Assembly: GCA_937126915.1 (NCBI GenBank)
Contig: CAKZLM010000171.1
Span: forward strand, 2,688-66,687
Length of the DNA: 64,000 bases
Reading direction: 5' to 3'
DNA from: an uncultured Alphaproteobacteria bacterium
Lineage (GTDB): Bacteria > Pseudomonadota > Alphaproteobacteria > Sphingomonadales > SMXR01
In this document: positions 14,558 through 56,782 of the stretch, piece by piece
How the letters are laid out: every line of letters starts with the position of its first letter
Numbering within the stretch: position 1 is the stretch's first letter
The notes under the pieces: model-generated
What the model was told of the DNA's origin: nothing
Databases searched by the model: none
The model's input: only the letters and a program-made list of their open reading frames with translations
Position numbers and translations under genes: made by a program

Positions 14558-15193
14558 ATGCTGAACGCCGTGACACATAAAAACCATAACCCTAATGACG
14601 GGGGGGCAGCAGAGGTTGATGGGTTAAACGCCTTATCGGATGCCTCGCTTGTTGCGCGTATTGCACGCGGCCAACATGCTGCTTATTCGGTTTTGGTGAT
14701 GCGCCATGCAAACCGATATGTGGCAGTGGCAGAAAAAGTGCTATATCAGCGCCAAGAAGCCGAAGATGCTGTGCAAGATGCGTTTGTAAAACTGTGGCAG
14801 AAGGCCGATCAATTTGAGCCAGAAACGGCAAAGTTCTCAACCTGGTTTTACCGCATTGTGGTGAACCAATGTTTGGATAGAAAGCGTAAAAAGACCGCCG
14901 ATGCGTTGCCCGAAGATTATGATATCAAGGATGACAGCAACGGCCCGGAAGAAAATTTGGTAGAAGATCAACGCGCCCAACAAATGCAGCAAGCGATGGA
15001 TCTGTTACCTGAAAGACAAAAAACCGCCATTGTCTTGTGCTATTATGAAGGCATGAGCAACAAAGAAGCGGCAGATGTGTTGGAAGTGAATATTAAAGCA
15101 CTTGAATCGCTTTTAACACGGGGCCGAAAAGGCCTAAAAGAAAATTTAGACAAATGCTTGGGCATGACAGCGAAAGATATGTTAAACACCTGA
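14558..15193 (+). CDS. ECF-type RNA polymerase sigma-70 factor
   Basis: Region 2 (EDAVQDAFVKLW...FSTWFYRIVVNQCLD) and region 4 (YYEGMSNKEAADVLEVNIKALESLLTRGR) are both recognisable. Confidence 0.88.
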   Translation: MLNAVTHKNHNPNDGGAAEVDGLNALSDASLVARIARGQHAAYSVLVMRHANRYVAVAEKVLYQRQEAEDAVQDAFVKLWQKADQFEPETAKFSTWFYRIVVNQCLDRKRKKTADALPEDYDIKDDSNGPEENLVEDQRAQQMQQAMDLLPERQKTAIVLCYYEGMSNKEAADVLEVNIKALESLLTRGRKGLKENLDKCLGMTAKDMLNT

Positions 15194-15220: not shown

Positions 15221-15763
15221 ATGACTGAACGAACCAAAGAAACCAACTCAGAGACCGCTATCAAGGTGATCACCACTGATCGCTTTGAAGTGATTGTTTC
15301 TGCCTATGGTTCTGATCCTGATCATTGGCCCGATGAGGAACGAGCCGCCGCGCTATCTTTTGCCAAAACTGAGGCGGGCAAGGCCTTGTTGAGTGATGCT
15401 AAAAGCCTGGATCGATGTCTTGACCTTGTCGCGCTAAAACCCGCTGCTGTTGATGATGGCTATTTAGATCGTGTGATGCGCGCTGTTGATCATCTGCCAC
15501 CTGCCTTAGTAGCAGCCACTCAGCCAGCTGACAGCGACGATACTTCTGTTAGCTTTATAGACTATCTGAAAGAGATGCTTGGTGTTAGCCGCCTAACCAT
15601 GGCGATCAGAGCAGGCGCTTTAACGGTTGCTGGTTTGATGGGTATTGCCCTTGGTGCTAGCAACATCACAAGCACTGGTTACGCAACCGCAACAATTGAT
15701 GCCAGCCAACTAGCTTGGGACCAAATGGCGCCTATTGCGGATATTAAAACCATCAAAGAATAG
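15221..15763 (+). CDS. Putative anti-sigma factor, non-zinc type, single TM
   Basis: Lies 27 nt after the sigma gene. Its N-terminal segment is VSAYGSDPDHWPDEERAAA with no HxxxCxxC motif. One hydrophobic segment (LTMAIRAGALTVAGLMGIALG) is present. The call rests mainly on position and architecture. Confidence 0.5.
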   Translation: MTERTKETNSETAIKVITTDRFEVIVSAYGSDPDHWPDEERAAALSFAKTEAGKALLSDAKSLDRCLDLVALKPAAVDDGYLDRVMRAVDHLPPALVAATQPADSDDTSVSFIDYLKEMLGVSRLTMAIRAGALTVAGLMGIALGASNITSTGYATATIDASQLAWDQMAPIADIKTIKE

Positions 15764-15784
15764 CCCTGAACGGATGGAATGATC

Positions 15785-16516
15785 ATGAGCGAACATAAAA
15801 CCCATAACAAAACATTTTGGACCAACAGCCTGCTTCTTGGCTCGTTGGCGCTTAATTTGTTCATGGGCGGTTTTATTGTCTCTCGTTTAATGGCAGGCCC
15901 TTCTTCTCCTGCCCTAGTTAGCCCTGTTCAACCCGTTGCAGCGCTTGACTTTAAGGTGCTGCCAGACAGCATCCCCATGCACGTGCGGGAAGACATTGAA
16001 AACGATGTGCGCCGTAATCAAAAGGCCCTGGAGGCGGCCTATAAAGATTATACCGCGCAACAGCAAAAGATTAATGACCTGATCCGTCAACCTGATGTGA
16101 ATGTGGATGACTTGCGCGAGGCGTTTCAAGCCCTGCGCGATATACAAGCCGAAGTTCAAGGCCCGCTTCACGAATCGATGGCGTTTGCCCTTGCCAATAT
16201 GAACCGCAATGAGCGTGAGCTGATCGTGGTGAAGCGTGATCAAGAATTTCCTATCCAAATTATCACATCAGATGTGACCGATGGTAAGAAATGGCGCTTT
16301 GAAATGGGCGGTAATTTCACCATTGATATGGATAAAATTAAACGCCTCAATCGCTTGAAAGAGCTTGAAATTGAACGTTCTAAAGAACTTGAGATGCAGG
16401 CCAAAGAAATTGTCAAACGAGTTGAAGAAAAAATGAAAAAGAACCAAGAAGACAATGAAGAATTACGCGATTGGCTAGAAGAAGACCGCGAACGCAAAGA
16501 AAATCACCAACCCTAA
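15785..16516 (+). CDS. Periplasmic CpxP/Spy / heavy-metal-sensor-like protein with a KE-rich C-terminal extension
   Basis: Has an N-terminal TM/signal anchor and then helical repeats resembling the Metal_resist/CpxP family. The last ~85 aa are highly charged (KRLNRLKELEIERSKELEMQAKEIVKRVEEKMKK..). The start could be 15779 or 15785. Confidence 0.5.
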   Translation: MSEHKTHNKTFWTNSLLLGSLALNLFMGGFIVSRLMAGPSSPALVSPVQPVAALDFKVLPDSIPMHVREDIENDVRRNQKALEAAYKDYTAQQQKINDLIRQPDVNVDDLREAFQALRDIQAEVQGPLHESMAFALANMNRNERELIVVKRDQEFPIQIITSDVTDGKKWRFEMGGNFTIDMDKIKRLNRLKELEIERSKELEMQAKEIVKRVEEKMKKNQEDNEELRDWLEEDRERKENHQP

Positions 16517-16566: not shown

Positions 16567-16977
16567 CTATTTCTTTTGTGCATTCAACAAAAGCTGGACA
16601 ATACGTTCATGGGTCAATTTTTCAGGGGCAATTTTGTTTGTGCAAGAATATTTCAAGATCAAATCTAGGTTCTGAGGTGTGTCCATCACATAGGCCATCC
16701 ACCAATTATCGAAATCTCGCGCCATAATATCAACACAGCCTACCAAGACTACATCACTGTGGCGGGCATCTTGACAAATACGATGATATGTTTCACTGAC
16801 TTTTTTGCGCTCGCCTTCTAAAACTTGGATAAAATACTTTTTATAAAGCCATAATGCACCGGTAATAAAGTTTTTGGAATTATGCACATGAGCAGACTTT
16901 AAAATTGCATCTAAATCTGCGCCTTGATCACTATCAAAACTGCTATAATATGCTAATTGTGTTAATTGTGATGGCAT
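16567..16977 (-). CDS. Stand-alone BLUF domain protein (blue-light FAD sensor)
   Basis: A 136-aa ORF. QLAYYSS supplies the beta1 Tyr, ITGALW...YFIQVLEG the conserved Gln, then DARHSD and NWWMAY (Trp/Met region). Confidence 0.8.
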   Translation of the reverse strand: MPSQLTQLAYYSSFDSDQGADLDAILKSAHVHNSKNFITGALWLYKKYFIQVLEGERKKVSETYHRICQDARHSDVVLVGCVDIMARDFDNWWMAYVMDTPQNLDLILKYSCTNKIAPEKLTHERIVQLLLNAQKK

Positions 16978-21975: not shown

Positions 21976-22413
21976 ATGGCTTGGACTGACGACCGTATCG
22001 AAATTTTACGTAAATTATGGGATCAAGGCTTAACCGCCAGCCAGATCGCTAAGGAGCTTGGCGAGGGTGTTACCCGTAATGCTGTGATTGGTAAGGCACA
22101 CCGTCTGGGCCTTAAGTCGCGCCCGTCTCCGGTTAAGTCTGACAAAAAGAAAGCCGCCGCCAAACCGGCCGCCAAACCGGCACCGAAAAAGGTCGTCGCT
22201 AAAAAATCTAAGAAGATTCATCTTCTTGATTTAACCGAACGCACCTGCAAATGGCCTATTGGTCACCCCGGTGAAGAAGACTTCCACTTCTGCGGTAAAG
22301 AAAGCATTCAAGGTCATCCTTATTGCCAAGGCCACTGTGAAGAAGCTTACCAAGCCCAGCAACCGCGCAAAAGCCGCGCTGCTATGCAACAGGCCCCACG
22401 CATTATCCGTTAA
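21976..22413 (+). CDS. gcrA: GcrA cell-cycle regulator
   Basis: The N-terminus MAWTDDRIEILRKLWDQGLTASQIAKELGEGVTRNAVIGKAHRLGL is followed by a basic AKP linker and a conserved C-terminal CKWPIGHPGEEDFHFCG segment. Confidence 0.92.
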   Translation: MAWTDDRIEILRKLWDQGLTASQIAKELGEGVTRNAVIGKAHRLGLKSRPSPVKSDKKKAAAKPAAKPAPKKVVAKKSKKIHLLDLTERTCKWPIGHPGEEDFHFCGKESIQGHPYCQGHCEEAYQAQQPRKSRAAMQQAPRIIR

Positions 22414-22592: not shown

Positions 22593-22828
22593 CTAGCGGC
22601 AAGCTCATCTTATTAAGGGGCTGACGTCATACCCCTCATACGATTGATGCCTCTTCTGTCCGTGCCTCTTGTTTATTTTCAGCCTAATTCTGAATGTTAG
22701 ATTAGACTGTTTATTGATCTGACCAACTCATATCACCGTAAAAATGATGGAATTTTCTGGACACACCTGTGCCAACATCGCATCATCTGTTCAGTTGGGT
22801 AATTCATTCATATGCGAGGGAGGAAAAC

Positions 22829-23290
22829 ATGTTGAAAAAAATGACCGCAGGCCTATTGGCAGGAATCATTACGGTTTCGGTAACGGCACCCGCCGTTATG
22901 GCTGGCGCTGACGAGGTTATCGCTTACCGTAAAGGCGTGATGAACACGGTGCGCTCTAATGCCGTTGCTATTATGGCGATGCGCCGTGGCAATCTTGATA
23001 TGGAAGATAATATTGGGGACATTGCGCAGCAAATGGCAACCGCATCTGGGTTGGTCACGGCTGCCTTTAAGGTCGATACCTCTGCGATGGATAGCAAAGA
23101 AAAAACCACCGCCAAAGATAACCTAGTTTGGGCAAATTGGTCAGACTTTATGGAAAAAGCTGTGGCGATGCAGGCCGATGCTGACGCCGTCGCAGCCTTA
23201 GCAGCTGCTGGCGATGTTGATGGCGCAAAAAATGCCATTGGCAACGTTTTTCGCCATTGTAAAGCCTGCCACGATACCTATCGCAAATAA
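22829..23290 (+). CDS. Cytochrome c' / class II c-type cytochrome (four-helix bundle)
   Basis: The ATG at 22829 is preceded by GAGGGAGGA. There is a signal peptide (..APAVMAGA) and a single C-terminal haem motif CKACH. Confidence 0.8.
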   Translation: MLKKMTAGLLAGIITVSVTAPAVMAGADEVIAYRKGVMNTVRSNAVAIMAMRRGNLDMEDNIGDIAQQMATASGLVTAAFKVDTSAMDSKEKTTAKDNLVWANWSDFMEKAVAMQADADAVAALAAAGDVDGAKNAIGNVFRHCKACHDTYRK

Positions 23291-23592: not shown

Positions 23593-24846
23593 TTATTGGC
23601 GAAGATGCTGCAAGAAAGCCTGCGATTGCTGTTCAAGGCGTGCGATTTGCTGGCTCATTGAATCAGCGCCTTCGATCATTTCACGGGCACTTTCAAGGGT
23701 TTGCTGTGCATTCATGCTAACCCCACCAATAGTTTGTGACACATTACGAGTACCTTCAGAAGCCTCTTGAATGTTGCGGCTAATTTCAACTGTCGCACTG
23801 CTTTGTTGTTCAGTTGCCGCTGCAATCATGCTGGCAATTTCGTTAATGGTGATGATTAACTCACTAATGCCATTAACCGCTTCAACCGACGAATCGGTGC
23901 GCTGTTGAATGTTGGAAATTTGCTGGCCAATGTCGCTGGTTGCATCAGACGTTTGATTGGCCAGTGATTTCACCTCAGACGCCACAACCGCGAAGCCTTT
24001 GCCTGCCTCGCCCGCACGCGCCGCCTCAATGGTAGCGTTCAGGGCCAACAAGTTGGTTTGCTCGGCAATATCAGAAATGAGTTTAACCACTTCACCGATT
24101 TTATCAGAGGCTTCACTTAACTGCTGAATAGTTTGCGAGGCTGTGTCGGCATCATTTTTCGCATCAGAGGTCTTCTGACTAGAGGTGGTTACTTGGCGAT
24201 TAATTTCCTCAACCGATGAAGACAGCTCTTCAGCTGCGGCGGCGACCATTTCCACATTCACAGTGGCCTGTTCAGCGGCGGCAGCAACCGTTGTTGACAT
24301 GCTTTGAGTTTCATCGGCATTTTTAATCAAAACATCAGCCAATTGACTGTTTTGCGCAGCCGCCGCACCAATAGAAGCAATAATTTCCATCACATGCCCT
24401 TCAAAATCAGCAGCAACCTGCTGCATTTTAGAGGCTTGCTCTAGTTCAATGGTTTCGATTGATTCTGATGTTTCATTAATGACCTTTGCACCCTGACCAA
24501 AGTCACCCAACATCCCTGTGGTTAGGAACTTGCGGTAATAACGCTTTTCCCCAGCGGCTTTCAACGAGGCACCAGCCTCACGGACATAAGCATCAACCAA
24601 GTCAATGGCTTGGTTTAGATTACTTAAAACTGGTGATAAGGTGTCATATTCATCCCACTTGATGATGCGTTTACGCAAATCACCTTTAGCAATGGCCACA
24701 GACAGTGATTCAATTTCAGTGAAAGCTTTTTCATAAAGGTCCAGCTTTTGCTCAAGCTCTGCAATTTTTTGTTGCTCCCCCGTAAGGAGTTTTGGGGCAG
24801 AGTGGTCATCGCCTTTTTTTGAAGAAAACATATTAAACAAGCCCAT
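23593..24846 (-). CDS. Methyl-accepting chemotaxis protein, cytoplasmic (no TM segment)
   Basis: The start is ATG 24846-24844 (MGLFNMFSS..), preceded by GGGAG. It contains the conserved signalling hairpin [39 protein letters not shown] see no hydrophobic segment. Confidence 0.85.
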
Positions 24847-24847
24847 C

Positions 24848-25372
24848 TTAAATCTCCCAAATAAAGGCATCATAAGATTTGCCCATATCTTGTAGCTTTT
24901 GCACCAACAGGGCGGCTGCCTCTTCCATGCCCTGTTTGGCATTGCTGGCCTTGTTTTCCACAGCCAACAATTCTGCATATAAAGGTTCGATGGCTTTAAC
25001 ACTGGCTTTATTAGGAAACCGTCGGTTTGAGTGATATTCAACAATTTGACCATTGGCATCAAAGGTTGGGGTCACATGAGCCAATACCCAATAATAACGT
25101 CCATCGCGGGCCATGTTTTTCACATACGCAAAAATTTCATTGCCGCTTTCTAAGGTGTCCCATAACAATTTAAACACGCAACGTGGCATGTCAGGATGAC
25201 GAATCATGCTGTGCGGTTCGCCCAAAACTTCAGCCGTGCTGAACCCCGCAACCCGACAGAACACATCATTGGCATAAATGATGCGGCCTTTTAGGTCCGT
25301 TTTGGACACAATAATTTCATCTTTATCAAAGCAGACTTCTTCATCTACTGGCTCAACTAGGTACTTGGCCAT
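24848..25372 (-). CDS. Aer-type PAS sensor protein (probable FAD-binding)
   Basis: [53 protein letters not shown]....[12 protein letters not shown] closely resembles the Aer PAS core. The ATG at 25372 is preceded by GGGAG. Its TAA stop is 1 nt before the MCP ATG. Confidence 0.8.
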
Positions 25373-25485
25373 CAATTTTTCTCCCGCCTCAAGGGTTATA
25401 TGCAATTATTTTTATCGACGATAAGTTAACAAAAGTTTAATTTTCCACCTAGGCGACAGTTTGTCACATCAAGAAAGCTGAATGA

Positions 25486-26610
25486 TTAAAGAATCTTAGC
25501 TTGATATGCTTTGACATTTATACCGCCATGCGAAAATGCAAGGGCCTTAGGATCAAAATCCAAACCCGTTGCATGGGCTAAACTGTCAGAATTGGTCACC
25601 ATGCCAAAGCGCCAGCCTTTGAAATTTTCAAGCAAAGCCTTTCCTAACGCGGCATAAAGGGGGCGCAGTTTTTTCTCAGATCCAATACGCCCTCCATAAG
25701 GAGGATTTACAACAACTAAGCCTGCTGGCAATCTATCACCATTACCATCAAGTGGCGGGGTTAAATCACTGATGGCTTGGCGCTTAAAAGCACAGACATC
25801 ATCCACCCCTGCGCGCTTAGCGTTGGCGGTTGCCATGGCAATGGCCCCCTCATCACGGTCAAACCCAAAGGCGTGCACCACAGCGTCCTGAACGGGAGCC
25901 AGTGTTTTTAATTTTTGCCATGCGTTCGCATCAAAACTCATCAATTGTTCAAACGCAAAATCACGATTACGTCCCGCTTGCAATCCCATAGTCATTTCTG
26001 CGGCCTCGATAGCAAATGTGCCTGAGCCACACATCGGGTCAACCACCACATCACCGGCTTTAAATCCGCAGGCTGAGAGAATTTGCGCCGCCAACGTTTC
26101 CCGCAACGGCGCCTTGTTTACAGCCTGCTTAGAGCCGCGCTTATGCAGCCCCTCGCCTGAGGTATCAACACTGATAGTACAAATATCTTTGATAATGCGT
26201 ATTTTTAAACATAAGTCAGCTTCGTCGCTAATCTCAGCTGCAATTGTGGTCTTTAAAGCCTTTTCAAAGCGTTCAGCAGCGGCTTTGCTGTGATAAATTT
26301 TCGATTTCTTACAGGTGACCTCAACCTTGATTCGTGACCCCTTTGGAAAAGTTTCGTGCCAAGGAAATTTCAACGCAGCCTTGTCCAGTTTAGCAAGATG
26401 GGCGACCTTAAAACTGCCCAAGCGTACCAATATTTTACTGGCTCCTCGCATCTCTAGGTTGGCGCGCCAAACATCACGCCACGACCCCACAATGCTAACA
26501 CCGCCCAAACTTTTCTCAGGATTGGAAAAGCCACGCATGTGCGCTTCTTTTAATAGCACATGCTCTAACCCTGGCACGGTCGATAAAAAAATCTCTAATT
26601 TTTGCCCCAC
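25486..26610 (-). CDS. THUMP-domain class I SAM-dependent RNA methyltransferase (RlmL/RlmK-like)
   Basis: An N-terminal THUMP-like region, the SAM motif DPMCGSGTF and catalytic NPPYG. 374 aa. Confidence 0.8.
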   Translation of the reverse strand: MGQKLEIFLSTVPGLEHVLLKEAHMRGFSNPEKSLGGVSIVGSWRDVWRANLEMRGASKILVRLGSFKVAHLAKLDKAALKFPWHETFPKGSRIKVEVTCKKSKIYHSKAAAERFEKALKTTIAAEISDEADLCLKIRIIKDICTISVDTSGEGLHKRGSKQAVNKAPLRETLAAQILSACGFKAGDVVVDPMCGSGTFAIEAAEMTMGLQAGRNRDFAFEQLMSFDANAWQKLKTLAPVQDAVVHAFGFDRDEGAIAMATANAKRAGVDDVCAFKRQAISDLTPPLDGNGDRLPAGLVVVNPPYGGRIGSEKKLRPLYAALGKALLENFKGWRFGMVTNSDSLAHATGLDFDPKALAFSHGGINVKAYQAKIL

Positions 26611-26825
26611 GGTGTTTTCCTTTTACCCTCAGCACTGACCCTTTGCATAGTCAGTAATCTTTACACAGATTTCATGACAACCAAATAGAAAGATTTAAGC
26701 CCTTTTCTAATTCACTAGACAATTCAACATGAAAGCGACAAAATGACACAAAGAGTTTTCTGTAAAAAAGCTGTATAGAATTAATAGTCATTGTTTCTAC
26801 TGGGTGTCGGCAAGGGTTGTAAAGC

Positions 26826-29800
26826 ATGAGTTCTAACAAGAATCATAATGACTTTGAGCAATTTTTTGAACTATCGAAAGACCTGCTTTGTATCGCTGGA
26901 ACAGATGGTTTTTTTAAAAAGATTAATCATGCCTTTGTCGAACTTTTAAATTTCAGCAAGGAAGAATTATTTTCCAAACAATTTGTTGAATTTGTTCACC
27001 CCGATGATGTTGAGGGAACACTTAAACAGGTTGAGCGATTATCACAGGGTAAAGCCGTCGTTGACTTTGAAAACCGCTATCGTTGTAAGGATGGACAATA
27101 TCGTGCCATTTCTTGGTCTGCCCAACCCACCGCAGACAAAAAAAGACTGTTCGCTATTGGTCGCGATGTCACCAACGAACGCAATGCTCAAAGAGAGTTA
27201 AATCAACTAATTAGCGCCCTCAAAGAAACCACTATTTATGCCAAAACCGATAAAAAAGGCGTGATCCTTGATGTTAATCACAGATTGACCGAAGTTTCGG
27301 GCTATAGCCGGGAAGAACTGGTTGGTGAAACCCACGCCCTGTTAAATTCTGGCGTTCATGACAAGGCCTTTTTTAAAGATATGTGGCAAACCATTTCTTC
27401 TGGTAATGTTTGGTCAGGCATGATTGAAAACAAAGCCAAAGGTGGTCATCATTATTTCGTCAACAGCATCATCGTGCCGATTAAAAACTTTGCAGGCAAA
27501 ATTGAGAATTATATTGCCTTTAGGTTTGATGTAACCGACTATATTGAAGCCAAGGATGAATTACAAAAAACCCTTAAAATTCTTAATGAAACCAGCAGTG
27601 TGGCAAAGGTTGGCGGCTGGGAGCTGGATATAGCAACCGGTGATTTGTTCTGGACCGATGAGACCTTCCGCATTTTAGAAGTTAAAAAACAAGACAACCA
27701 ACGCCCAACCCTGCCTGAGGGGTTAGACCTTTTTACCGATGCCGCAAAACCGATTATTGATGAGGCCGTTCAACGCTGTATCGAGTATGGCGAACCTTAT
27801 TTCTTAGAGTTGGAAGCCTTAACCGCCAAAGGCAACCCACTTTGGGTTTACACCAATGGCGCTCCTAACTTTGTCGATGGTAAGGTTGTGTCTTTGTCAG
27901 GCACCATCCAAAATATTGATGATCGTAAAAAGGCTGAAATTGCCCTAGAGAAGAGCGAAAGTCGCTATCGTGGTATCGTAGAAAATACAGAAGATTTGAT
28001 CGCCATTACAGATGCCGATGGGAAAATTCTTTTCACCAACAGCATGGCAAACACACTGTTGGGTTTAACACCTGATGAAACCAACGGCTTGTCCGTTTAT
28101 CGTATTTTCCATAAAGACGACCGTGAAGCCTTCAGTGCTAGCTTAAGCAATGCCATTAAGGCAAAAGCACCCTCACGGCAACTTCAGTGCCGCCTTGTCG
28201 GAGCAAAAGGCAACGTCCGTGTGGTTTCATGGAACCTGCAAATAATCTATAATGATGATCAAACACCGTTCCAAATCATTGGTATTGGCCGTGACGTCAC
28301 CGACCAGCAAAAATTACAACAAGATCTTAAAAACGCCCTCGAGAAAGCCCAGAATGCTGACCGCGCCAAAACCGACTTTTTGGCCAATATGAGTCATGAA
28401 ATTAGAACCCCGATGAACGGCATTTTAATGTCACTTAATCTAACGCAAAAATCCGATGACCCCGCAAAGGTGGCGAAATTATTGAACACAGCCAATGCGT
28501 CAACCACGTCTTTGTTACAGGTTATTAATGATATTCTTGATTTTTCAAAATTAGAATCAGGGAAAGTGACAATTGAAAATGGTGCCTTTGACCCCAAAGA
28601 GCTGTTGGATCATATCACCGAACTTATGACCCTCGTTGCTGAAGACAAGGGTCTTTCCTTATCAACCACCCTATCTGATGCGCTCCATCAAACCATCGTC
28701 GGTGATAAAATTCGCCTTACTCAGGTGATCACCAATTTTGTCTCTAACGCGATTAAATTCTCTAAGACTGGTACAATAAAGATTAACGCCACCATGGTTG
28801 AAGGGGATAACCCGCGCTTTAGAGTGGATGTCACAGATTGCGGCCCTGGCTTATCACAAGCACAACAGAAACAACTGTTCAAACGCTTTAGCCAATTAGC
28901 GCAAGATCGCAAACAAGCCACCTCGGGTACAGGGCTTGGCCTTGCCATTTCCAAACAATTGATCGACCTAATGGAGGGTCAGATTGGCGTCACCAGCGAT
29001 GGTAAATTCGGCTGCACTTTCTGGTTTGAAGTGCCCCTTGTTTTAGCGGCCGACCAGACAACACAATCAAACAATGATGACAACATTAGCCAGCTGGATC
29101 AGCAATTACATATTCTTTTGGTGGAAGATGTCGACTTTAACCGTGAGCTTGTAACCATGCTGCTGGAAATGCAGGGCCATAAGGTAACAAGCGCCGTCAA
29201 TGGCTATCTTGCCCTTGATATATTGCTCAATCAAAAAGCCACCTTTGACCTTATTTTAATGGATAACCACATGCCCATGATGACGGGCATTCAAGCCACA
29301 TCCACCCTGCGGGCCAGTCGAAACCAAAACAATAATATTCCCATAATCGCCCTTACAGCTGATGTTTTGGCAGAACGCAAAGAAGAATTGTTCGCAGCTG
29401 GGGTCAATGGATTTATTGCCAAGCCCGTTAACGATGCTGATTTAAAAAATGAAATAAACCGTGTGATGTCCTCTGGCCCTGTCTCTGTTACCAAGTCAGA
29501 CGACAATGACTCGCTTTATTCATTAATCTATATCAGTCGACGTTTAAGCGACGACCTTAATATCATTGAACTGTTGAAAAAAGCCCGCACCCTGAATGAT
29601 AATAACAATATCACTGGCGTATTATGGGAAGTGGGTGACTTTTTTGTCCAAACCCTAGAGGGAAAGCGATCAAAGGTTTACGAAACCATGGCACGCATTT
29701 GCCAAAGTGACTTACACACTGACATTCAAATCGTTTTTGCTGAAAACATTGCCGCACGCAAATTTGCGCAATGGTCCATGGCCTTTCCTGATAATGCCCT

Positions 29801-29930
29801 AGATATTCACGATCTTTTGACGCGGCGCTTTGGTCAAGCCGATGATCTTTATGCCATCAACCGCGAACAATTAAGCCGCTATATTTTTGATTCGGCTCAA
29901 CACACTGAATTTTATGAGGAAGGGGAATAA
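26826..29930 (+). CDS. Soluble hybrid sensor histidine kinase: PAS x4, HisKA, HATPase_c, REC and a C-terminal BLUF
   Basis: A 1034-aa ORF. H-box MSHEIRTPMNG (His codon 28395-28397). ATPase boxes DCGPGL / GTGLGLAISK. Receiver HILLVEDVDFN..LILMDNHMP (Asp codon 29262-29264). The C-terminal BLUF motifs are listed in the next feature. Confidence 0.9.
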   Translation: MSSNKNHNDFEQFFELSKDLLCIAGTDGFFKKINHAFVELLNFSKEELFSKQFVEFVHPDDVEGTLKQVERLSQGKAVVDFENRYRCKDGQYRAISWSAQPTADKKRLFAIGRDVTNERNAQRELNQLISALKETTIYAKTDKKGVILDVNHRLTEVSGYSREELVGETHALLNSGVHDKAFFKDMWQTISSGNVWSGMIENKAKGGHHYFVNSIIVPIKNFAGKIENYIAFRFDVTDYIEAKDELQKTLKILNETSSVAKVGGWELDIATGDLFWTDETFRILEVKKQDNQRPTLPEGLDLFTDAAKPIIDEAVQRCIEYGEPYFLELEALTAKGNPLWVYTNGAPNFVDGKVVSLSGTIQNIDDRKKAEIALEKSESRYRGIVENTEDLIAITDADGKILFTNSMANTLLGLTPDETNGLSVYRIFHKDDREAFSASLSNAIKAKAPSRQLQCRLVGAKGNVRVVSWNLQIIYNDDQTPFQIIGIGRDVTDQQKLQQDLKNALEKAQNADRAKTDFLANMSHEIRTPMNGILMSLNLTQKSDDPAKVAKLLNTANASTTSLLQVINDILDFSKLESGKVTIENGAFDPKELLDHITELMTLVAEDKGLSLSTTLSDALHQTIVGDKIRLTQVITNFVSNAIKFSKTGTIKINATMVEGDNPRFRVDVTDCGPGLSQAQQKQLFKRFSQLAQDRKQATSGTGLGLAISKQLIDLMEGQIGVTSDGKFGCTFWFEVPLVLAADQTTQSNNDDNISQLDQQLHILLVEDVDFNRELVTMLLEMQGHKVTSAVNGYLALDILLNQKATFDLILMDNHMPMMTGIQATSTLRASRNQNNNIPIIALTADVLAERKEELFAAGVNGFIAKPVNDADLKNEINRVMSSGPVSVTKSDDNDSLYSLIYISRRLSDDLNIIELLKKARTLNDNNNITGVLWEVGDFFVQTLEGKRSKVYETMARICQSDLHTDIQIVFAENIAARKFAQWSMAFPDNALDIHDLLTRRFGQADDLYAINREQLSRYIFDSAQHTEFYEEGE
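29521..29800 (+). other. BLUF domain at the C-terminus of the hybrid kinase (domain-level feature)
   Basis: SLYSLIYISRR...NNITGVLWEVGDFFVQTLEGKRSKVYETMARICQSDLHTD...FAQWSMAF. The Tyr, Gln and Trp-x-Met positions typical of BLUF are all present. Confidence 0.75.
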
Positions 29931-30015
29931 TCACCCGCCATTTAAGTTTCGATGCCCCATCTTATGCTGCTTAGCCTTCTACAAAATGTGCTTGTTAAAT
30001 GCACACAAAGATATC

Positions 30016-30837
30016 ATGATGAAAAAAAGATATAGCCCTCTTAGAAATGATGCCAAATTGAAAAAAGCCCTAAAATACGCTGCTACATCCCTGTTGATGT
30101 CTCTAAGTTTTGCAATCACACCGCTTTTCGCTCTGGATGAAGAACCGATCATTTTTGGTACCAGCTTTAGATTGGCCGAACAATCGCGCGACTTAAGCAA
30201 GGCTATTATGAGCAAGTTTTGTCAGAGCGAAAATTTAAGCTGCGACATACGCTTTCTACCGCAAGAACGGCTCAACCGTGACTTTTCGCTAAATATTATC
30301 GATATTTTACTGTTCCGCGATCATGTCGTCGATGATCGCCACCGTCAGACGTCATACCCGTTTGCCGCAACCACGCTTTTGGCCATTGAATATCCAAAAG
30401 CAGAAAACAAAACAGCCACTTTCACTACTGATGGGATTAATCCCCAAGCAACCATTGCATGGCAGCGCGGCGATAACCTTGAAGGTACGCTGAATTTTCA
30501 GGGCTCTGTGATCGAGATAGAGGGCTTTGAACAAGGACTTCAATTGGTAAGAGCTGGCAGAATCAGTGCCTATTTTGAATGGAATACCGAGATACTGATC
30601 CGCACCACTTATGAAGACTTAAGCCAGCAAGGTTTTATCTTAACGCCCATCATTGAAGACGTTCCGCTTTACCCTATGCGGAACCTAGAAGAAGAAAACA
30701 TCATCATCATTGACCTTTTAAGCCAGTGGTATATCGGCATGCATGAAAAAGGCGAACTTTTACCCATATATGAAAGATTTGGCCTAAAAGACGCCTACCC
30801 CTTCCACAAAAACTGGCAAAAATGGCTTAAAGACTAA
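30016..30837 (+). CDS. Secreted substrate-binding-protein-like protein (divergent type-3 SBP fold)
   Basis: The ATG at 30016 begins MMKKRYSPL.. with a signal-like LLMSLSFAITPLFA. The rest has a weak bilobed SBP-like pattern. The ORF-track start at 29887 overlaps the kinase 3' end and is unlikely. Confidence 0.45.
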   Translation: MMKKRYSPLRNDAKLKKALKYAATSLLMSLSFAITPLFALDEEPIIFGTSFRLAEQSRDLSKAIMSKFCQSENLSCDIRFLPQERLNRDFSLNIIDILLFRDHVVDDRHRQTSYPFAATTLLAIEYPKAENKTATFTTDGINPQATIAWQRGDNLEGTLNFQGSVIEIEGFEQGLQLVRAGRISAYFEWNTEILIRTTYEDLSQQGFILTPIIEDVPLYPMRNLEEENIIIIDLLSQWYIGMHEKGELLPIYERFGLKDAYPFHKNWQKWLKD

Positions 30838-31039
30838 GTCCTTTAACTATCAAAGGCTCCTGTTCAATGGAATCTTATGCTCAGCCGCCTCTCGTAATTG
30901 CCATAAAATCCTATTATTTCATCTATTATAGAAAATAATTCCTTTTTTATTGACGATTACCCCTCTCAAATAGAACATATTGCTAAAGCGGTATGATTTG
31001 TCATACAATTTATGAAGCCTATTTCGGAGAAAAAAACCG

Positions 31040-31996
31040 ATGAGCATTATCTATATCATTCATGAAAACGATGAATGGGTTGCCCCACTGAAGTTAGCCT
31101 TAGATAATATCGCTGCCCCCTATCGAGAATGGCACATGGGTAAGGGCCACTTTAATATTTCTGAGCGGCCTCCCGAGGGTATATTTTATAATCGTATGAG
31201 TGCAAGCTCTCACACTCGTGGCCATAGATTTGCACCTGAGTTAACTGCTGTTATTTTGCCTTGGTTGGAACGGCATAACCGAACTGTGGTCAATGGCTCT
31301 TCCGCCTTGAATATAGAATTAAGCAAAGCTCAACAACAAATGGCCTTTGAGAGTCATAATATTGTCACCCCCAAAACCCTTTACGCGCAAAACAAAGAAG
31401 ATATTGTCTCTGCTGCCAAACACTTTTCCACCCCCTTTATCATTAAGCATAATCGCGCGGGCAAAGGACTGGGAGTATTTTTGTGTACCCATCAAAGTGA
31501 CCTATTGGAACATCTGCAAAGCGAACAGTTCTCGCCATCTATTGATGGTATTCATCTGTTGCAAGATTATATCCAATCGCCATCCCAATCGATTGTTCGA
31601 ATGGAGTTTGTTGGTGGCAAATTCCTTTATGCCGTAGAGGTCAGCACCGGTGGCAGTTTTGAATTATGCCCAGCAGATCAGTGTAATATTGAAGGCGCTT
31701 TTTGCCCAACCAATGATACAACACTCTCCCAAGGGCCAAAGTTTAAGATCATCAACCATTACCAAAACCCCCTTATACCGCACTATGAAGCTTTGTTAGA
31801 AACGCATAACATCCAGATTGCAGGTATCGAATATATTGTCGACGCCAATGGGCAGTCTTACGCTTATGATATTAATACCAATACCAATTATAATAGTGAG
31901 GCCGAAAAGCAGGCGGGCATCTACGGTATGAAAGCTATCGCTAGCTATTTAGCAGACTTGGCCCAAAAAAAATATCCTCTGGGTAAAGCCAGCTAA
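31040..31996 (+). CDS. ATP-grasp domain protein (RimK/glutathione-synthetase-like ligase), substrate unknown
   Basis: A 318-aa ORF with FIIKHNRAGKGLGVF (Lys/Gly-rich loop), LLQDYI and a late IAGIEYIVD..YAYDINTNTNY Mg/ATP region typical of the ATP-grasp fold. Confidence 0.65.
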   Translation: MSIIYIIHENDEWVAPLKLALDNIAAPYREWHMGKGHFNISERPPEGIFYNRMSASSHTRGHRFAPELTAVILPWLERHNRTVVNGSSALNIELSKAQQQMAFESHNIVTPKTLYAQNKEDIVSAAKHFSTPFIIKHNRAGKGLGVFLCTHQSDLLEHLQSEQFSPSIDGIHLLQDYIQSPSQSIVRMEFVGGKFLYAVEVSTGGSFELCPADQCNIEGAFCPTNDTTLSQGPKFKIINHYQNPLIPHYEALLETHNIQIAGIEYIVDANGQSYAYDINTNTNYNSEAEKQAGIYGMKAIASYLADLAQKKYPLGKAS

Positions 31997-39768: not shown

Positions 39769-42700
39769 TCAAGCAGACAATGCGTTTTTTAGCATTTCTG
39801 ACGGTAATGTCATCAGTCGCATTTCTTCGGTCCATAAAAGCGCACAAGCAACTTGTTTGTTGGGGTAAATTGCCTGCATGGCTTGGGCATAAACTGCCAT
39901 TTGCGCCACGTAGCTTTTCGGTACCGCGTCCAGTGTTTTAGCAGGGGGGCGGTTGGTTTTATAATCAACCACCAACACTTTATCGTCCATCACAACCAAA
40001 CGGTCAATTTGACCTGCGACGGGTTTGCCTGCAACAATCGCAGAAAATGACACCTCGGCCTGACTACCTGCACCAAAAATGGCCGCAAAATTATCATCGT
40101 TTAATAATTTAGACAACTTTTCCCAAATGTCGTTTATTTGTGCCTGATCAAGGTGATAAGCGCCTTTAGACAAATAGGCCCGCGCTAAAGCCTCACGTTT
40201 TTCAGCGGGACTTTCAGGTAATATTTCCAATAATTTGTGGATCATGGTACCGCGCATATAACGGCTAATATCCTGTTCGCGTCCCTTTAACGGGCTTGCG
40301 GTTGCATCATCACTATCATCCATTTTTGAAGGGGCTAATGGTTTTGATAACGCCCCTTCATCCTTAGGCAACTGGTTTACCCATTGGGGCAAGCGAACAG
40401 ATTGTGCATCTACGGCTTTTTGTTTTTTGTCATCCCTTTTTGCAGGGCGTGTTTGCTCAACTTTCCACCGCTTAATAAGGCCGCTTTCGCCAAAATCAAC
40501 ATCGACCTTTTCAACATTTGGCAAGAGATCAAAACCAGCTTCAATCAGGTTATACCAACATTTATCAGTGCGCTTGCGTGACTTCTCCCAGCCACATACA
40601 TAAAGATGATCCTCGGCGCGGGTCATGGCCACATACATCAGACGGCGATATTCCGCTAATTCTGCCGTTTTATTATGCTCTTTTAGGCTGTTAATTGGTT
40701 CAGGATTACCCAATTCACTGCGGTGCCAAACAAACAGGCCATCTTGCTGATCATTGCCTGCTGCCCCCAAATTATATACGCTGCCGCCGGATTTTGGTTC
40801 AACCGTGGTGTCGGGCATAAAAACAATAGGCGCCTGTAAGCCCTTTGCACCGTGAATTGTCATGATACGCACTTCATCGCGCGGGCTTTCCATATCGCGT
40901 TTAATTTCTGTGGTACCCGACGCCAACCATTGCACAAAGCCTTGCAGCGATGGTGTGCGGTTGGTTTCATAATCTAGCGCCAGATTTAAAAATTCATCCA
41001 ATGGGTCATGAACCTCTGGTCCCAAACGTCCAACCAATTTCTGACGGCCCTTCAGAGCCGACAATATATCCGCATAAAATTGAAACGGTGACATAAAATC
41101 AGCCATACTGGTCACCTGTTGGATGAAACCCGCCGCCTCGGCAAAACGGGCGTGTTGACCAGTGGTTAAGCTGTCATCGCCCTTTTGAACCTGTTCTTGC
41201 AAGCGTTGCCAAAGGGTTTTACCGCCACGATCATGGGCCAATTGGTACAGGTCTTCATCATCAAAGCCAATGAAGGGCGATTTCAGAACCGTGGCAAAGG
41301 TCAAATCATCCAAGGGATTTAGCGTCATATTGGTCAACGCGATTAAGTCCATCACGCCAATATGATCCATCACATTTAACCTGTCCGACCCCGCCACAGG
41401 AATTTGGAGGGCCTTTAGGGCCCTGATCATTTCCCCATGAAACTCATTACGCCTACGTACCAAAATGATGATATCACCAGCACGAACGGGCCGATCACGG
41501 CTTTCTAGACGTTCATTGGTTTTTAACATCTGGTCAATTTTAACGGCTATGAGACGCGCCAATTGCCCTGCCCCACTGGGTACAGACACCTGCTGTTCCG
41601 GTGGCTCCCAATGTTCAGGTATGGAAATAGGGGTTTCTTTCACAACAGGCCACAACTCCACCAAGCCCGCCTGACCTTCACGGTTAACAGTGTGTTTGAC
41701 CTGCATACTATTATCGTGAGTTAAGTTTTGATGCGCTTCGGGTCTTGAAAACACCGCATCGACCAAGCCTAAAACCGCCTTGGTTGAACGGAAAGATCGT
41801 TGCATGTCAATACTTACAAAGCGTTTTTCACTGGCCTCTGCCTTATCTCGCACACGATCGCGTGAACGCACAAACTCCGCCGGGTCAGCGCGCTGGAAAC
41901 GATATATTGACTGCTTGGCATCACCCACCATAAATAGGGTGCGATCCACCTCACGGGCCCCTTCACCCACGTAAAACTCGTTTGATAACCGCTCAATTAA
42001 CTGCCATTGTTCAGGGTTAGTATCTTGTGCCTCATCAACCAAAATATGGTCCAAACCACCGTCTAATTTATATAATATCCATGGCGCAATATCTGGTTTG
42101 GCAAGAAGCGCATCGGTGCGTAAGATCAAATCATCAAAATCAACCTTCCCAAGGCTGGTTTTGTCCCCTTCATAAAGATTTAATATCGCCGCACTCACCT
42201 TTAAAAGCGCCGTTGATTGGTTGAAAATTTGGCGTTTCTGATCGCGCGCCACAAGGGCTAAAACTCTTTGCTGTTCAGCACTTAACACCGGCTCTAAATC
42301 AGGGTGCTTTTTATAAAGTCCTGCCAAACCAACCTTAAAGGGTTGTAAATCAGTCTTGTTCAAAAAGACCAAGATATAATCATTATAAAATTGTAACCGT
42401 TTCGGACCCGCCTCTGTTGCCAAAATCGCCCCTAATTGGTCACCCCTTTGCACCACGGTTTGGCTACCATCCATAAAGCATTGTCTAATTTTTTGGCGAA
42501 TTGCCTCTTGCTTGCTGCTATTGAGCAACTCATCGGCGATTGTTTCTCGTGTGTCTGTGGGATCAACACCCAGCGCGTCTGCCAAGGGTGAAAACAAGCT
42601 TTCTATTTGGTCGTAACTGCCGCGCAACACGCGCTTTTGAATGGCTTTTAACAAACGCCCCCGTTCACCTGTCACCGATTGTAACAAGGAACCAAAGGTA

Positions 42701-43260
42701 AAATCACTGACGCGGCGGGCAATATGAAAAAGGGCCTGTTTGCCGGCATCATCATGACCTGCTTTTAGGGCGCTAAAGGTTTGGTCAGCGGCATTATCAA
42801 GCCATTCTTGCTGGCTGCGCTCATCCATTTGCTCAAACTGGGGCGGCAGGTCTGCCTCCAGCGGGAACCGACCCAGCAATGAATTGCAAAAAGAATGAAT
42901 GGTCATAATTTTAAGGCCACCGGGTAAGTCTAACACCCGCGCAAACAAAGATCGTGCTAGTGATAATTTATCCTGAGCCACCACTTCATCGAGTGAAATG
43001 CTTAATTCTGACCTTAAGGCGTCATCATCCATGCGGGTCCATTGACCTAAGCGGCGATACAAACGGTTGGTCATTTCTTTGGCCGCGGCCTTGGTATAAG
43101 TAAGACAAAGAATTTTACCGGGGTCCGTGCCCTGCAGCATCATGCGCAACACCCGCGCGGTTAAAACGTGGGTTTTGCCCGTGCCCGCATTGGCCCCAAC
43201 CCAAACCGAGGCTTTCGGATCACTGGCAAGCGCCTGTTCAGGGGTCATTTTATCAGCCAT
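39769..43260 (-). CDS. addA: Double-strand break repair helicase-nuclease AddA
   Basis: A 1163-aa ORF with UvrD-type Walker A GAGTGKTH, helicase motifs and the C-terminal RecB-type nuclease motif VVDYKT. Its ATG overlaps the addB stop as TAATG. Confidence 0.92.
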   Translation of the reverse strand: MADKMTPEQALASDPKASVWVGANAGTGKTHVLTARVLRMMLQGTDPGKILCLTYTKAAAKEMTNRLYRRLGQWTRMDDDALRSELSISLDEVVAQDKLSLARSLFARVLDLPGGLKIMTIHSFCNSLLGRFPLEADLPPQFEQMDERSQQEWLDNAADQTFSALKAGHDDAGKQALFHIARRVSDFTFGSLLQSVTGERGRLLKAIQKRVLRGSYDQIESLFSPLADALGVDPTDTRETIADELLNSSKQEAIRQKIRQCFMDGSQTVVQRGDQLGAILATEAGPKRLQFYNDYILVFLNKTDLQPFKVGLAGLYKKHPDLEPVLSAEQQRVLALVARDQKRQIFNQSTALLKVSAAILNLYEGDKTSLGKVDFDDLILRTDALLAKPDIAPWILYKLDGGLDHILVDEAQDTNPEQWQLIERLSNEFYVGEGAREVDRTLFMVGDAKQSIYRFQRADPAEFVRSRDRVRDKAEASEKRFVSIDMQRSFRSTKAVLGLVDAVFSRPEAHQNLTHDNSMQVKHTVNREGQAGLVELWPVVKETPISIPEHWEPPEQQVSVPSGAGQLARLIAVKIDQMLKTNERLESRDRPVRAGDIIILVRRRNEFHGEMIRALKALQIPVAGSDRLNVMDHIGVMDLIALTNMTLNPLDDLTFATVLKSPFIGFDDEDLYQLAHDRGGKTLWQRLQEQVQKGDDSLTTGQHARFAEAAGFIQQVTSMADFMSPFQFYADILSALKGRQKLVGRLGPEVHDPLDEFLNLALDYETNRTPSLQGFVQWLASGTTEIKRDMESPRDEVRIMTIHGAKGLQAPIVFMPDTTVEPKSGGSVYNLGAAGNDQQDGLFVWHRSELGNPEPINSLKEHNKTAELAEYRRLMYVAMTRAEDHLYVCGWEKSRKRTDKCWYNLIEAGFDLLPNVEKVDVDFGESGLIKRWKVEQTRPAKRDDKKQKAVDAQSVRLPQWVNQLPKDEGALSKPLAPSKMDDSDDATASPLKGREQDISRYMRGTMIHKLLEILPESPAEKREALARAYLSKGAYHLDQAQINDIWEKLSKLLNDDNFAAIFGAGSQAEVSFSAIVAGKPVAGQIDRLVVMDDKVLVVDYKTNRPPAKTLDAVPKSYVAQMAVYAQAMQAIYPNKQVACALLWTEEMRLMTLPSEMLKNALSA

Positions 43261-56678: not shown

Positions 56679-56782
56679 CTAATTTGTTTCCAACCATTGC
56701 TATCATCATCGCCTAGCAGCCATCAGGTTTTATAATTCGCGACATATCTGCACCATCATCCAATAAAGCCTAAAACCAAAAC

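Follow-up and report, generated by a model that had tools for sequence, protein, structure and literature searches.

Our analysis identifies, in an uncultured alphaproteobacterium, a soluble hybrid histidine kinase that carries a complete short BLUF photoreceptor behind its receiver (REC) domain, on a flexible tether. Its catalytic and photocycle residues are intact, and the same architecture recurs in other proteins. The gene is an uninterrupted open reading frame of 1034 aa in a window of 64,000 nt, by which we mean the whole stretch of DNA that was analysed. The HisKA-HATPase-REC-BLUF architecture is real but very rare, and it departs from the sensor-upstream layout of studied photoreceptor kinases: to our knowledge, in every photoreceptor histidine kinase studied to date the light sensor precedes the kinase and is coupled to it through a helical spine.

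The BLUF census of Losi et al. counts 64% short proteins and 34% with an EAL domain (PMC4844311), in agreement with the statement of an earlier note on this DNA that characterised BLUF domains are either short proteins or lie N-terminal to an effector. The occurrence of BLUF units in sensor histidine kinases has been mentioned in one sentence, as uncharacterised (Moglich 2019; PMC6798134). Literature searches found no description of an HK-REC-BLUF or Hpt-BLUF fusion; the earlier note had likewise known of no characterised HK-REC-BLUF example.

Domain order and catalytic residues

The order of four PAS domains, histidine kinase, REC and BLUF (Table 1) had been proposed from the letters alone and is confirmed: Pfam, an alignment to BLUF proteins of solved structure and the AlphaFold/Foldseek fold match all support it. 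Pfam matched PAS, HisKA, HATPase_c, Response_reg and BLUF, and it placed PAS in four stretches, the number that had been claimed. The extent of the reading frame agrees with the ORF list. No membrane segment was found in the 1034-aa protein, the peak Kyte-Doolittle mean over 19 residues being 1.06, which bears out the reported lack of a hydrophobic segment.

Table 1. Coordinates in the window of the hybrid kinase gene and its parts.
Feature	Position	Strand	Basis
Whole gene: soluble hybrid histidine kinase, PAS x4-HisKA-HATPase_c-REC-linker-BLUF	26826..29930	+	ORF list and Pfam
Four tandem PAS domains, cytoplasmic input module, residues ~10-495	26853..28310	+	PAS_3 E 5e-42, PAS_4 E 1e-34, four stretches each
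HisKA (DHp), residues 514-579; phospho-accepting His524, codon 28395-28397	28365..28562	+	Pfam E 5.5e-19
HATPase_c, residues 626-738; N box NAIKF, G1 box DCGPG, G2 box GTGLGL	28701..29039	+	Pfam E 4.4e-27
Receiver, residues 763-877; E767/D768, Asp813 (29262-29264), Thr844, Lys866	29112..29456	+	Response_reg E 1.5e-21
Flexible polar linker SSGPVSVTKSDDND, from REC helix alpha5 to BLUF strand beta1	29472..29513	+	AF2 pLDDT about 56
BLUF core, residues 897-986	29514..29783	+	PF04940 E 1.8e-22, full profile
C-terminal extension, helices alpha3 and alpha4 of the short-BLUF unit	29784..29927	+	AF2, Foldseek

Judged by sequence, the catalytic residues of both kinase and receiver are intact. The boxes of a HisKA-class kinase are all present (SHEIRTP, NAIKF, DCGPG and GTGLGL), and the H-box, DCGPGL and GTGLGL motifs and the His and receiver Asp codons were located as previously quoted. 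In the alignment, the H box SHEIRTPMNG with His524 is identical across every family member, and the receiver residues E767/D768, D813, T844 and K866 are unchanged throughout. The receiver is modelled by AF2 with a pLDDT above 90 and matches the receiver of the hybrid kinase PA1611 in Foldseek with a TM score of 0.89.

NCBIfam local matches to TorS, ArcB, BarA and LuxQ span the kinase-REC region. These proteins and PA1611 share the HisKA-HATPase-REC core, and the REC domain is structurally closest to that of PA1611. An equivalog assignment was rejected, since the scores fell far below the cut-offs (349 bits against 676 for TorS, 318 against 838 for ArcB and 317 against 890 for BarA) and Pfam matched no Hpt domain anywhere in the protein; TorS, ArcB and BarA carry an Hpt domain after REC, whereas here the BLUF domain occupies that position. 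A LOV-type PAS domain or LOV kinase was rejected as well: the protein contains no NCR[FL] motif and no NCRFLQ, and none of the four Cys residues of the PAS region stands in a LOV context.

The BLUF unit and its tether

The PF04940 match extends over the entire profile (positions 1-92 of 92) and, at 79.7 bits, lies above the cut-off of 25 bits. The BLUF hallmarks named in the earlier note (Tyr, Gln and Trp-x-Met) all align with PixD, BlrB and Tll0078. The segment SLYSLIY, to which the hallmark Tyr had been assigned, does contain it; two Tyr residues are present there, and it is the second, Tyr902 (29529-29531), that aligns with PixD Tyr8 and with the Tyr of Tll0078 and BlrB. Gln942 (29649-29651), within FVQTLEG, aligns with PixD Gln50, and Asn924 (29595-29597), directly before ITG, with PixD Asn32. 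Trp983 (29772-29774) and Met985 (29778-29780) align with PixD Trp91 and Met93, the WSM motif being found in BlrB and Tll0078 as well. Among the five family members described below, the Tyr, Gln, Asn and Met are conserved in all and the Trp in four, P0272 alone having lost it.

Behind the BLUF core, ~48 residues make up the pair of C-terminal helices that characterises short BLUF proteins (in the AF2 model, residues 238-249 and 259-271 of the fragment); an N...RFG motif in this extension is conserved in the family. AF2 gives a pLDDT above 90 across the BLUF core and shows a ferredoxin-like fold plus C-terminal helices, with beta5 reduced to a single bridge. In Foldseek, about 140 residues align to full-length TePixD, SyPixD, BlrB and BlsA with TM scores of 0.72-0.77 (E about 1e-11 for TePixD, SyPixD and BlrB). 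In the AlphaFold model, which the earlier note had called for, the C-terminal region is folded like a whole short BLUF protein of the PixD type. We infer that the unit would bind flavin and run the BLUF photocycle. BLUF-effector enzymes, namely BlrP1/YcgF (BLUF-EAL), bPAC/OaPAC (BLUF-cyclase) and AppA (BLUF-SCHIC), have the same BLUF core and photocycle residues, but their BLUF domain is N-terminal and signals via C-terminal helices into the next domain, whereas here these helices end the protein. A second, stand-alone BLUF gene is located in the same window.

The junction between REC and BLUF is a disordered linker of 14 aa. Across the five family members its length is 14, 21, 15, 15 and 33 aa and its sequence is unconserved, which argues against coiled-coil allostery. 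LOV and bacteriophytochrome kinases (LovK, EL346, YF1, BphP) likewise join a photosensor and HisKA/HATPase_c in one chain, and in both cases light is expected to modulate phosphotransfer; in those kinases, however, the photosensor is N-terminal and connected to the DHp domain by a continuous helical linker (PMC6798134), whereas here it is the last domain of the chain, following the receiver and joined to it by a disordered linker whose length varies.

The AF2 model of the C-terminal part has a mean pLDDT of 88.6 and both domains are confident, with no confident REC-BLUF interface (pTM 0.61, with just five paired sequences as input). A comparison of the BLUF-bearing kinases with their BLUF-less sisters revealed no position that is both invariant in and exclusive to the former. 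At a 4-of-5 threshold, which refers to five BLUF-bearing sequences, three positions are family-specific; two of these, E854 and N869, lie on REC helix alpha4 and the beta5-alpha5 loop, and their place on the REC surface may be a weak hint of BLUF docking there.

Relatives, rarity and origin

At least four other HisKA-HATPase-REC-BLUF proteins (P0003, P0013, P0023 and P0272) exist among about 5.8 billion proteins, 150 of 5994 BLUF matches being listed. They were recovered with a longer core profile; a REC-BLUF profile had returned multi-REC proteins and no BLUF matches. All proteins found with this architecture belong to a single Kordiimonadales-like hybrid-kinase subfamily, whose other members stop just after REC. 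Identity across the family is 50-54% in the kinase core, 43-46% in REC and 33-47% in BLUF. The REC-linker-BLUF junction is the same in the four homologues, which come from other samples, and the N-terminal sensors are unrelated: some members have soluble PAS domains, others a two-TM periplasmic sensor domain together with a Peripla_BP_6 partner gene. Independent Hpt-BLUF fusion proteins were found in addition (P0016, L016 and L017).

In a BLUF-only tree the point estimate groups the five fused domains together as a clade, with a bootstrap of 8/100. In a tree of the HK-REC core the BLUF-less P0279 and P0380 are interleaved with the fused proteins, exclusive monophyly of the latter receiving a bootstrap of 1/60. 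The trees are compatible with a single gain of BLUF and later losses as well as with several independent gains.

A REC-BLUF scan of GTDB genome contigs gave three REC-only matches (Photobacterium, a Lachnospiraceae MAG and Phaeobacter) and no HK-REC-BLUF protein, and of 32 BLUF matches obtained by tblastn against plasmids none was fused to a kinase. Motif search and phmmer found no Hpt gene in the 64,000-nt window. Neither an Hpt nor a response-regulator gene adjoins this gene or that of any family member, and no candidate partner gene is conserved beside them.

Light at the relay step and competing explanations

The architecture suggests that light acts at a late step of the phosphorelay and not at the kinase input. 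Hybrid kinases without an Hpt domain pass the phosphoryl group to a separate Hpt protein. In the scenario we propose, the four PAS domains would control autophosphorylation on His524, and the phosphoryl group would be handed to Asp813 in the fused receiver, then on to a separate Hpt protein and a response regulator encoded elsewhere. The BLUF unit, which is PixD-like, complete and predicted to be photochemically competent, would hang behind the receiver on its 14-residue tether. Since the BLUF unit lacks a rigid helical connector and is the final domain of the chain, we propose that it signals like stand-alone BLUF proteins: in only one state, dark or lit, it would make a non-covalent contact with the receiver, or with the surface where REC and Hpt meet, and thereby speed up or slow down phosphotransfer or dephosphorylation. 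Blue light would thus reach the relay step as a second input and be integrated there with the signal sensed by PAS. Both this contact with REC or Hpt and the sign of the light effect we infer. The occurrence of the architecture in four other proteins, the flexible tether and the Hpt-BLUF fusions, which tie BLUF to the same REC-to-Hpt step, lead us to favour this gating of the phosphorelay by a tethered BLUF docking on the receiver or a phosphotransfer partner, and we give it a little less than an even chance.

PixD-PixE and BlsA-BfmR may serve, by analogy, as precedents for light-dependent binding of a receiver-containing protein by a short BLUF. Synechocystis PixD (Slr1694) is a short BLUF with two C-terminal helices, like the unit described here, and pairs with the PatA-type receiver-domain protein PixE in a complex that comes apart in blue light (PMC11181946); PixD and TePixD are also the best superpositions of the BLUF half of our model (Foldseek). 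The two proteins are nevertheless separate polypeptides that assemble into a large hetero-oligomer; PixE contains a PATAN domain, and its action does not depend on phosphorylation. A complex of the PixD-PixE type was rejected for the present protein, in which REC and BLUF form one polypeptide, the receiver belongs to a hybrid kinase and keeps all phospho-acceptor residues, and Pfam matches no PATAN domain. BlsA of Acinetobacter baumannii, likewise a structural match, is a short BLUF whose binding to the response regulator BfmR is reported to be tighter in darkness (PMC9814549, citing Chitrakar et al.). It is stand-alone and fused to no kinase, and its interaction with BfmR is, as far as that secondary account goes, known from immunoprecipitation only.

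Control could also run in the reverse direction, with the BLUF domain as the output of the receiver. Phosphorylation of Asp813 would then expose or hide a BLUF surface or change the oligomeric state, so that BLUF binds a downstream partner only in the right combination of phosphorylation and light state; a photoreceptor would then serve as the effector of a two-component system contained in a single protein. PapB, AppA, PixD and BlsA are the precedents invoked for such partner binding. Response regulators are universally ordered with REC first and another domain behind it, and by this grammar a domain behind REC is a regulated output, which speaks against relay gating and for reverse control. 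The BLUF domain is, moreover, the last domain and a complete short-BLUF unit with partner-binding helices, and no Hpt is encoded nearby. Integration of phosphorylation and blue light in one polypeptide has been described for the Rec-LOV-GGDEF family (LaRldC; Fuchs and Winkler 2026; PMC13501900), which similarly joins a receiver and a flavin blue-light sensor, although there LOV stands between REC and the catalytic output, whereas here BLUF is terminal and the kinase is part of the protein. Against reverse control, the nearest BLUF-less sisters stop after REC and must relay via Hpt, which marks the lineage as one of phosphorelay kinases; no partner gene is conserved beside the family members, and the Hpt-BLUF fusions would be hard to explain. 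We regard reverse control as rather unlikely. If BLUF does bind REC, thermodynamic linkage would make it and relay gating two faces of one mechanism.

Light-dependent contacts between BLUF domains, within or between kinase dimers, might instead change dimer geometry or clustering and hence autokinase or phosphatase activity, leaving the REC-to-Hpt step aside. PixD-type BLUF units oligomerise, and TePixD and SyPixD, both oligomeric, are the best structural matches; intermolecular contacts would be possible on a long flexible tether, and dimerisation was among the mechanisms suggested in the earlier note. This explanation leaves unaccounted for why BLUF is fused specifically behind REC, and elsewhere behind Hpt, and we consider it unlikely. 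That the BLUF domain does not sense light at all, and serves as a flavin-based redox sensor or persists as an inert structural remnant in a host seldom exposed to light, is more improbable still. It could draw on the loss of the conserved Trp in P0272 and on the BLUF-less sisters, which show that the kinase works without BLUF; yet five of five members retain Tyr, Gln, Asn and Met at a BLUF identity of 33-47%, which points to selection on the photocycle residues, and the stand-alone BLUF of the window keeps all of its own. An assembly chimera or a frameshift joining a kinase gene to a short BLUF gene has to be considered for a metagenome-derived sequence whose protein is a singleton cluster. 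The reading frame is uninterrupted, however, the same protein (100% identical) occurs with identical neighbours on an 8-kb ENA metagenome contig, and the homologues share the REC-linker-BLUF junction; we thus reject the artefact, which retains a negligible chance.

Returning to the relay-gating scenario, HK-REC-BLUF proteins and separate Hpt-BLUF proteins may together represent a new wiring, in which a sensor tethered to relay components gates Asp-to-His transfer, and a chemical signal, received through PAS or a periplasmic binding protein, joins blue light at a checkpoint inside the phosphorelay. We put this broader picture forward tentatively, as a possible but doubtful one. If the tethered BLUF is functional, it would show that light can enter a phosphorelay at the relay step, and it would be the first known natural example of cis regulation of a two-component protein by a BLUF domain. 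The REC-linker-BLUF module of about 280 aa would then be compact and transplantable for optogenetic control of phosphorelays, natural variants of it being already placed on different input sensors. The family would also offer a covalent and tractable model for the poorly understood signalling of short BLUF proteins such as PixD and BlsA to their receiver-domain partners.

The BLUF-bearing hybrid kinase

The window encodes a soluble hybrid histidine kinase whose Pfam matches follow the order four PAS folds, kinase, receiver and BLUF, as an earlier note had read it. The H-box histidine and the receiver aspartate lie at the codons named in that note, the ATPase boxes DCGPGL and GTGLGL are present as it quoted them, and the catalytic residues of kinase and receiver are all intact. 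Since the highest 19-residue hydropathy mean is only 1.06, the protein has no membrane segment, in agreement with the same reading, and the PF04940 match predicted at residues ~900-995 was found there. Alignment of the BLUF segment by phmmer to the PDB sequences of BlrB, Tll0078/TePixD, PixD/Slr1694, AppA, BlsA, bPAC and OaPAC equates Tyr902, Asn924 and Gln942 with PixD Tyr8, Asn32 and Gln50, and Trp983/Met985 with Trp91/Met93. The hallmark tyrosine claimed for SLYSLIY is present; the equivalent of Tyr8 is its second tyrosine, not the first.

Residues 755-1034 were modelled by AlphaFold2 with 89 other sequences as input (the four relatives, receiver domains and short BLUF proteins), at a mean pLDDT of 88.6. 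Confidence was high both for the receiver (fragment residues 1-128) and for the BLUF unit (143-271), which takes the fold of short BLUFs. The 14-residue linker reached a pLDDT of only ~56, and the pTM of 0.61 leaves the arrangement of the two domains relative to each other uncertain. Foldseek searches of the PDB matched the C-terminal half to whole short BLUFs (TePixD, SyPixD, BlrB and BlsA; E ~1e-11, TM 0.72-0.77) over ~140 residues and the N-terminal half to receiver domains (best, hybrid kinase PA1611, TM 0.89); no match covered both halves. Since both C-terminal helices are included, the C-terminus is predicted to be a complete short BLUF protein attached to the receiver. In sequence and modelled fold, the protein shows all the features of the BLUF family and of HisKA-type hybrid kinases, and its domain assignment is secure. 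Identity as a LOV kinase was ruled out, and a TorS, ArcB or BarA equivalog was rejected (no Hpt, scores far under the cut-offs).

Features of the window and of related contigs
Feature	Location	Strand	Remarks
Hybrid kinase ORF	26826-29930	+	1034 aa, uninterrupted
PAS folds	four stretches, N-terminal	+	Pfam
HisKA	residues 514-579	+	Pfam
HATPase_c	residues 626-738	+	Pfam
Response_reg	residues 763-877	+	Pfam
BLUF	residues 897-986	+	Pfam E 1.8e-22, 79.7 bits (cut-off 25 bits), whole 92-position profile
His524 codon	28395-28397		phospho-acceptor
Asp813 codon	29262-29264		phospho-acceptor
Receiver position E854	29372-29374		common to at least 4/5 BLUF-bearing kinases
Receiver position N869	29430-29432		common to at least 4/5 BLUF-bearing kinases
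Signal-peptide protein	30016-30837	+	no Pfam match; ~85 nt downstream of kinase
ECF sigma factor	14558-15193		neighbour of stand-alone BLUF
Putative anti-sigma	15221-15763		neighbour of stand-alone BLUF
Metal_resist/Spy-like	15779-16516		neighbour of stand-alone BLUF
Stand-alone BLUF	16567-16977	-	136 aa, Pfam E 5.8e-26
GcrA	21976-22413
Cytochrome c'	22769-23290
Soluble MCP signalling-domain protein	about 23593-24846	-	directly after Aer-like PAS gene
Aer-like PAS protein	24848-25405	-	motif [10 protein letters not shown]...W
AddA-like helicase-nuclease	39769-43260	-
ChvG/ChvI-like pair	55011-57622	-
Peripla_BP_6 gene	L006 6738-7985		upstream of P0013
Peripla_BP_6 gene	L008 6744-7985		upstream of P0023
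Peripla_BP_6 gene	L092 6689-7948		upstream of P0272
PAS_5 (PF07310) gene	L008 5808-6446		adjoins P0023 kinase operon
PAS_5 (PF07310) gene	L016 2961-3488		directly upstream of Hpt-BLUF
Hpt-BLUF gene	L016 3638-4405	+	canonical HNLKGAAS motif
ORF without Pfam match	L016 6736-7458	-	near Hpt-BLUF gene

Rarity and origin of the architecture

The HisKA-HATPase_c-REC-BLUF architecture is genuine and recurs in other proteins, yet is very rare among the matches covered here. When the BLUF segment was compared exhaustively (phmmer) with 1.84 billion cluster representatives, 5994 matched; the window protein is a singleton cluster, the next BLUF being just 37% identical. Nearly all of the best 150 of these matches are short proteins of ~140 aa, and the three long ones with a C-terminal BLUF (P0003, 702 aa; P0013, 827 aa; P0023, 839 aa) all have this architecture in Pfam. 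The earlier note had raised rarity as a check: an indexed search of 5.8 billion proteins with a HisKA-to-C-terminus core profile (8000 candidates scored) recovered these three at 902-914 bits and one further member, P0272 (835 aa), at 611 bits, below which stood BLUF-less hybrid kinases alone (at most 570 bits). Each relative's cluster has one or two members. Kinase-fused BLUFs were found neither among 80 loci of a metagenome BLUF-motif scan, where apparent long BLUF ORFs were dismissed as spurious high-GC extensions, nor among 32 BLUF matches on 72,556 plasmids (tblastn).

A census of 1705 bacterial BLUF proteins by Losi et al. counts 64% as short and 34% as joined to EAL, and its accessible portion makes no mention of kinase-fused BLUFs (PMC4844311). 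The earlier note knew of no characterised HK-REC-BLUF protein; our literature search likewise found no description, except for one remark by Moglich that BLUF units also occur, uncharacterised, in sensor kinases (PMC6798134). A receiver and a flavin light sensor are combined in the Rec-LOV-GGDEF family, reported in 2026, which is the closest characterised counterpart (PMC13501900).

The four relatives share 50-54% identity with the window protein in the kinase core, 43-46% in REC and 33-47% in BLUF, and their N-terminal regions are unrelated to its own. P0003 is soluble; P0013, P0023 and P0272 each carry two transmembrane helices around a ~230-aa domain and follow directly on a Peripla_BP_6 periplasmic binding-protein gene, at 16 bp (P0013, P0023) or ~50 bp (52, P0272). 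The two genes probably form a conserved unit with the bound ligand as primary signal. REC-BLUF linkers in the five members measure 14, 21, 15, 15 and 33 aa and are polar and unconserved. That of P0272 (residues ~672-703) carries the short tandem repeat KEQCD KEQCD KE; in the BLUF of this protein Tyr, Gln and Met are kept, but the conserved Trp of W-x-M has been lost.

The closest BLUF-less kinases, namely P0279, P0280, P0283, P0285, P0293 (from Kordiimonas sp.) and P0380 (from Temperatibacter marinus), are as close in HK-REC (41-48%) as the BLUF-bearing relatives (46-49%), and the three examined at full length (P0279, P0280, P0293) end directly past receiver helix alpha5. Because a neighbour-joining tree of the core places the BLUF-bearing proteins with P0279 and P0380 in one small clade, the BLUF domain was apparently added inside one hybrid-kinase subfamily of marine alphaproteobacteria, order Kordiimonadales. 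With bootstrap values of 1/60 (core) and 8/100 (BLUF alone), the trees would fit a single gain with some losses as well as repeated gains.

Gene neighbourhood

The kinase is apparently an orphan gene. Upstream lies a divergent RlmL-like methyltransferase gene, downstream the signal-peptide protein and then an ATP-grasp protein. Since no intrinsic terminator was predicted between the kinase stop codon and the signal-peptide gene, co-transcription of the two is possible. On metagenome contig L016, the Hpt-BLUF gene also has nearby an ORF of comparable size whose N-terminus is hydrophobic. No response regulator gene adjoins the kinase, no Hpt-like motif or homologue occurs in the whole 64-kb window, and adjacent Hpt or regulator genes are also absent beside the other family members. 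Sigma-70-like promoter matches number 19 in 26400-31200 against 9.9 +/- 3.2 in shuffles (~2x); many fall within the kinase ORF and may reflect composition.

The stand-alone BLUF, ~10 kb upstream, has Tyr, Gln and W-x-M intact and shares the 'ITGALW' subtype with the kinase BLUF and metagenome short BLUFs (L012-L015); its position beside ECF genes suggests that blue light also feeds separately into an ECF stress regulon. Close to the kinase, the Aer-like PAS and MCP proteins, called as two adjacent genes on a metagenome contig and adjoined by the cytochrome c' gene, together resemble an Aer-type redox or aerotaxis transducer split in two. The GcrA gene marks the window as alphaproteobacterial. 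The ChvG/ChvI-like pair (kinase with Sensor_TM1, Stimulus_sens_1 and HAMP; OmpR-type regulator) and the AddA-like gene fit an alphaproteobacterial chromosome and seem unrelated to the BLUF kinase.

A proposed light input to the phosphorelay

Between REC and BLUF the tether is disordered and of variable length, and no domain follows BLUF. Known BLUF enzymes signal via C-terminal helices into the next domain, and known photoreceptor kinases via a continuous helix into DHp (PMC6798134). Both routes are absent in the window protein, so that light-dependent non-covalent binding, as in stand-alone BLUFs, is the remaining one. PixD binds the PatA-type regulator PixE and blue light releases it (PMC11181946); co-precipitation of BfmR with BlsA was stronger in the dark (PMC9814549). 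Because stand-alone BLUFs act in this way, also on receiver-containing partners, we propose that in one of its light states the tethered BLUF would dock either on the receiver of the same protein or on the REC/Hpt interface, and would there gate phosphotransfer or Asp~P stability. We regard this gating, tentatively, as a real possibility and as the best of the readings considered.

Hpt-BLUF fusions, of which no description was found in the literature, bear on the same step. P0016 (253 aa, canonical phospho-His motif HNLKGAASS) is among the best BLUF relatives, and the metagenome scan gave two further proteins of 255 aa (L016, L017); the motif HNLKGAAS and an intact BLUF are common to all three. 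In a relay from kinase to REC, Hpt and regulator, the step common to REC-BLUF and Hpt-BLUF fusions is the REC/Hpt encounter. PAS_5 genes adjoin both the L016 fusion and the P0023 kinase operon.

Three positions alone distinguish BLUF-bearing kinases from their sisters, and two lie on REC, E854 (alpha4) and N869 (beta5-alpha5 loop). Their states occur in none of the six BLUF-less sisters and in 3-7% of 114 BLUF-less hybrid kinases (sisters included), a weak hint in favour of docking, from a very small sample of five, that they may mark a contact surface. Two points count against gating: the AlphaFold2 model holds no confident REC-BLUF interface, and in response regulators the domain past REC is normally the regulated one. 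The latter speaks for phosphorylation controlling the BLUF output, which we think unlikely, yet worth keeping in view; if BLUF binds REC, linkage would make both directions of control compatible. Light-driven self-association of the BLUF units is less probable still. The photocycle residues are intact in the window protein and conserved across the divergent family, and a non-photic flavin domain seems very improbable. An artefactual fusion is scarcely credible, being excluded in practice by a second assembly and the four homologues.

Assembled from known modules, the window protein is a true variant, rare and so far uncharacterised. By the gating mechanism that we infer for it, PAS-domain signals and blue light would be integrated at the relay step.
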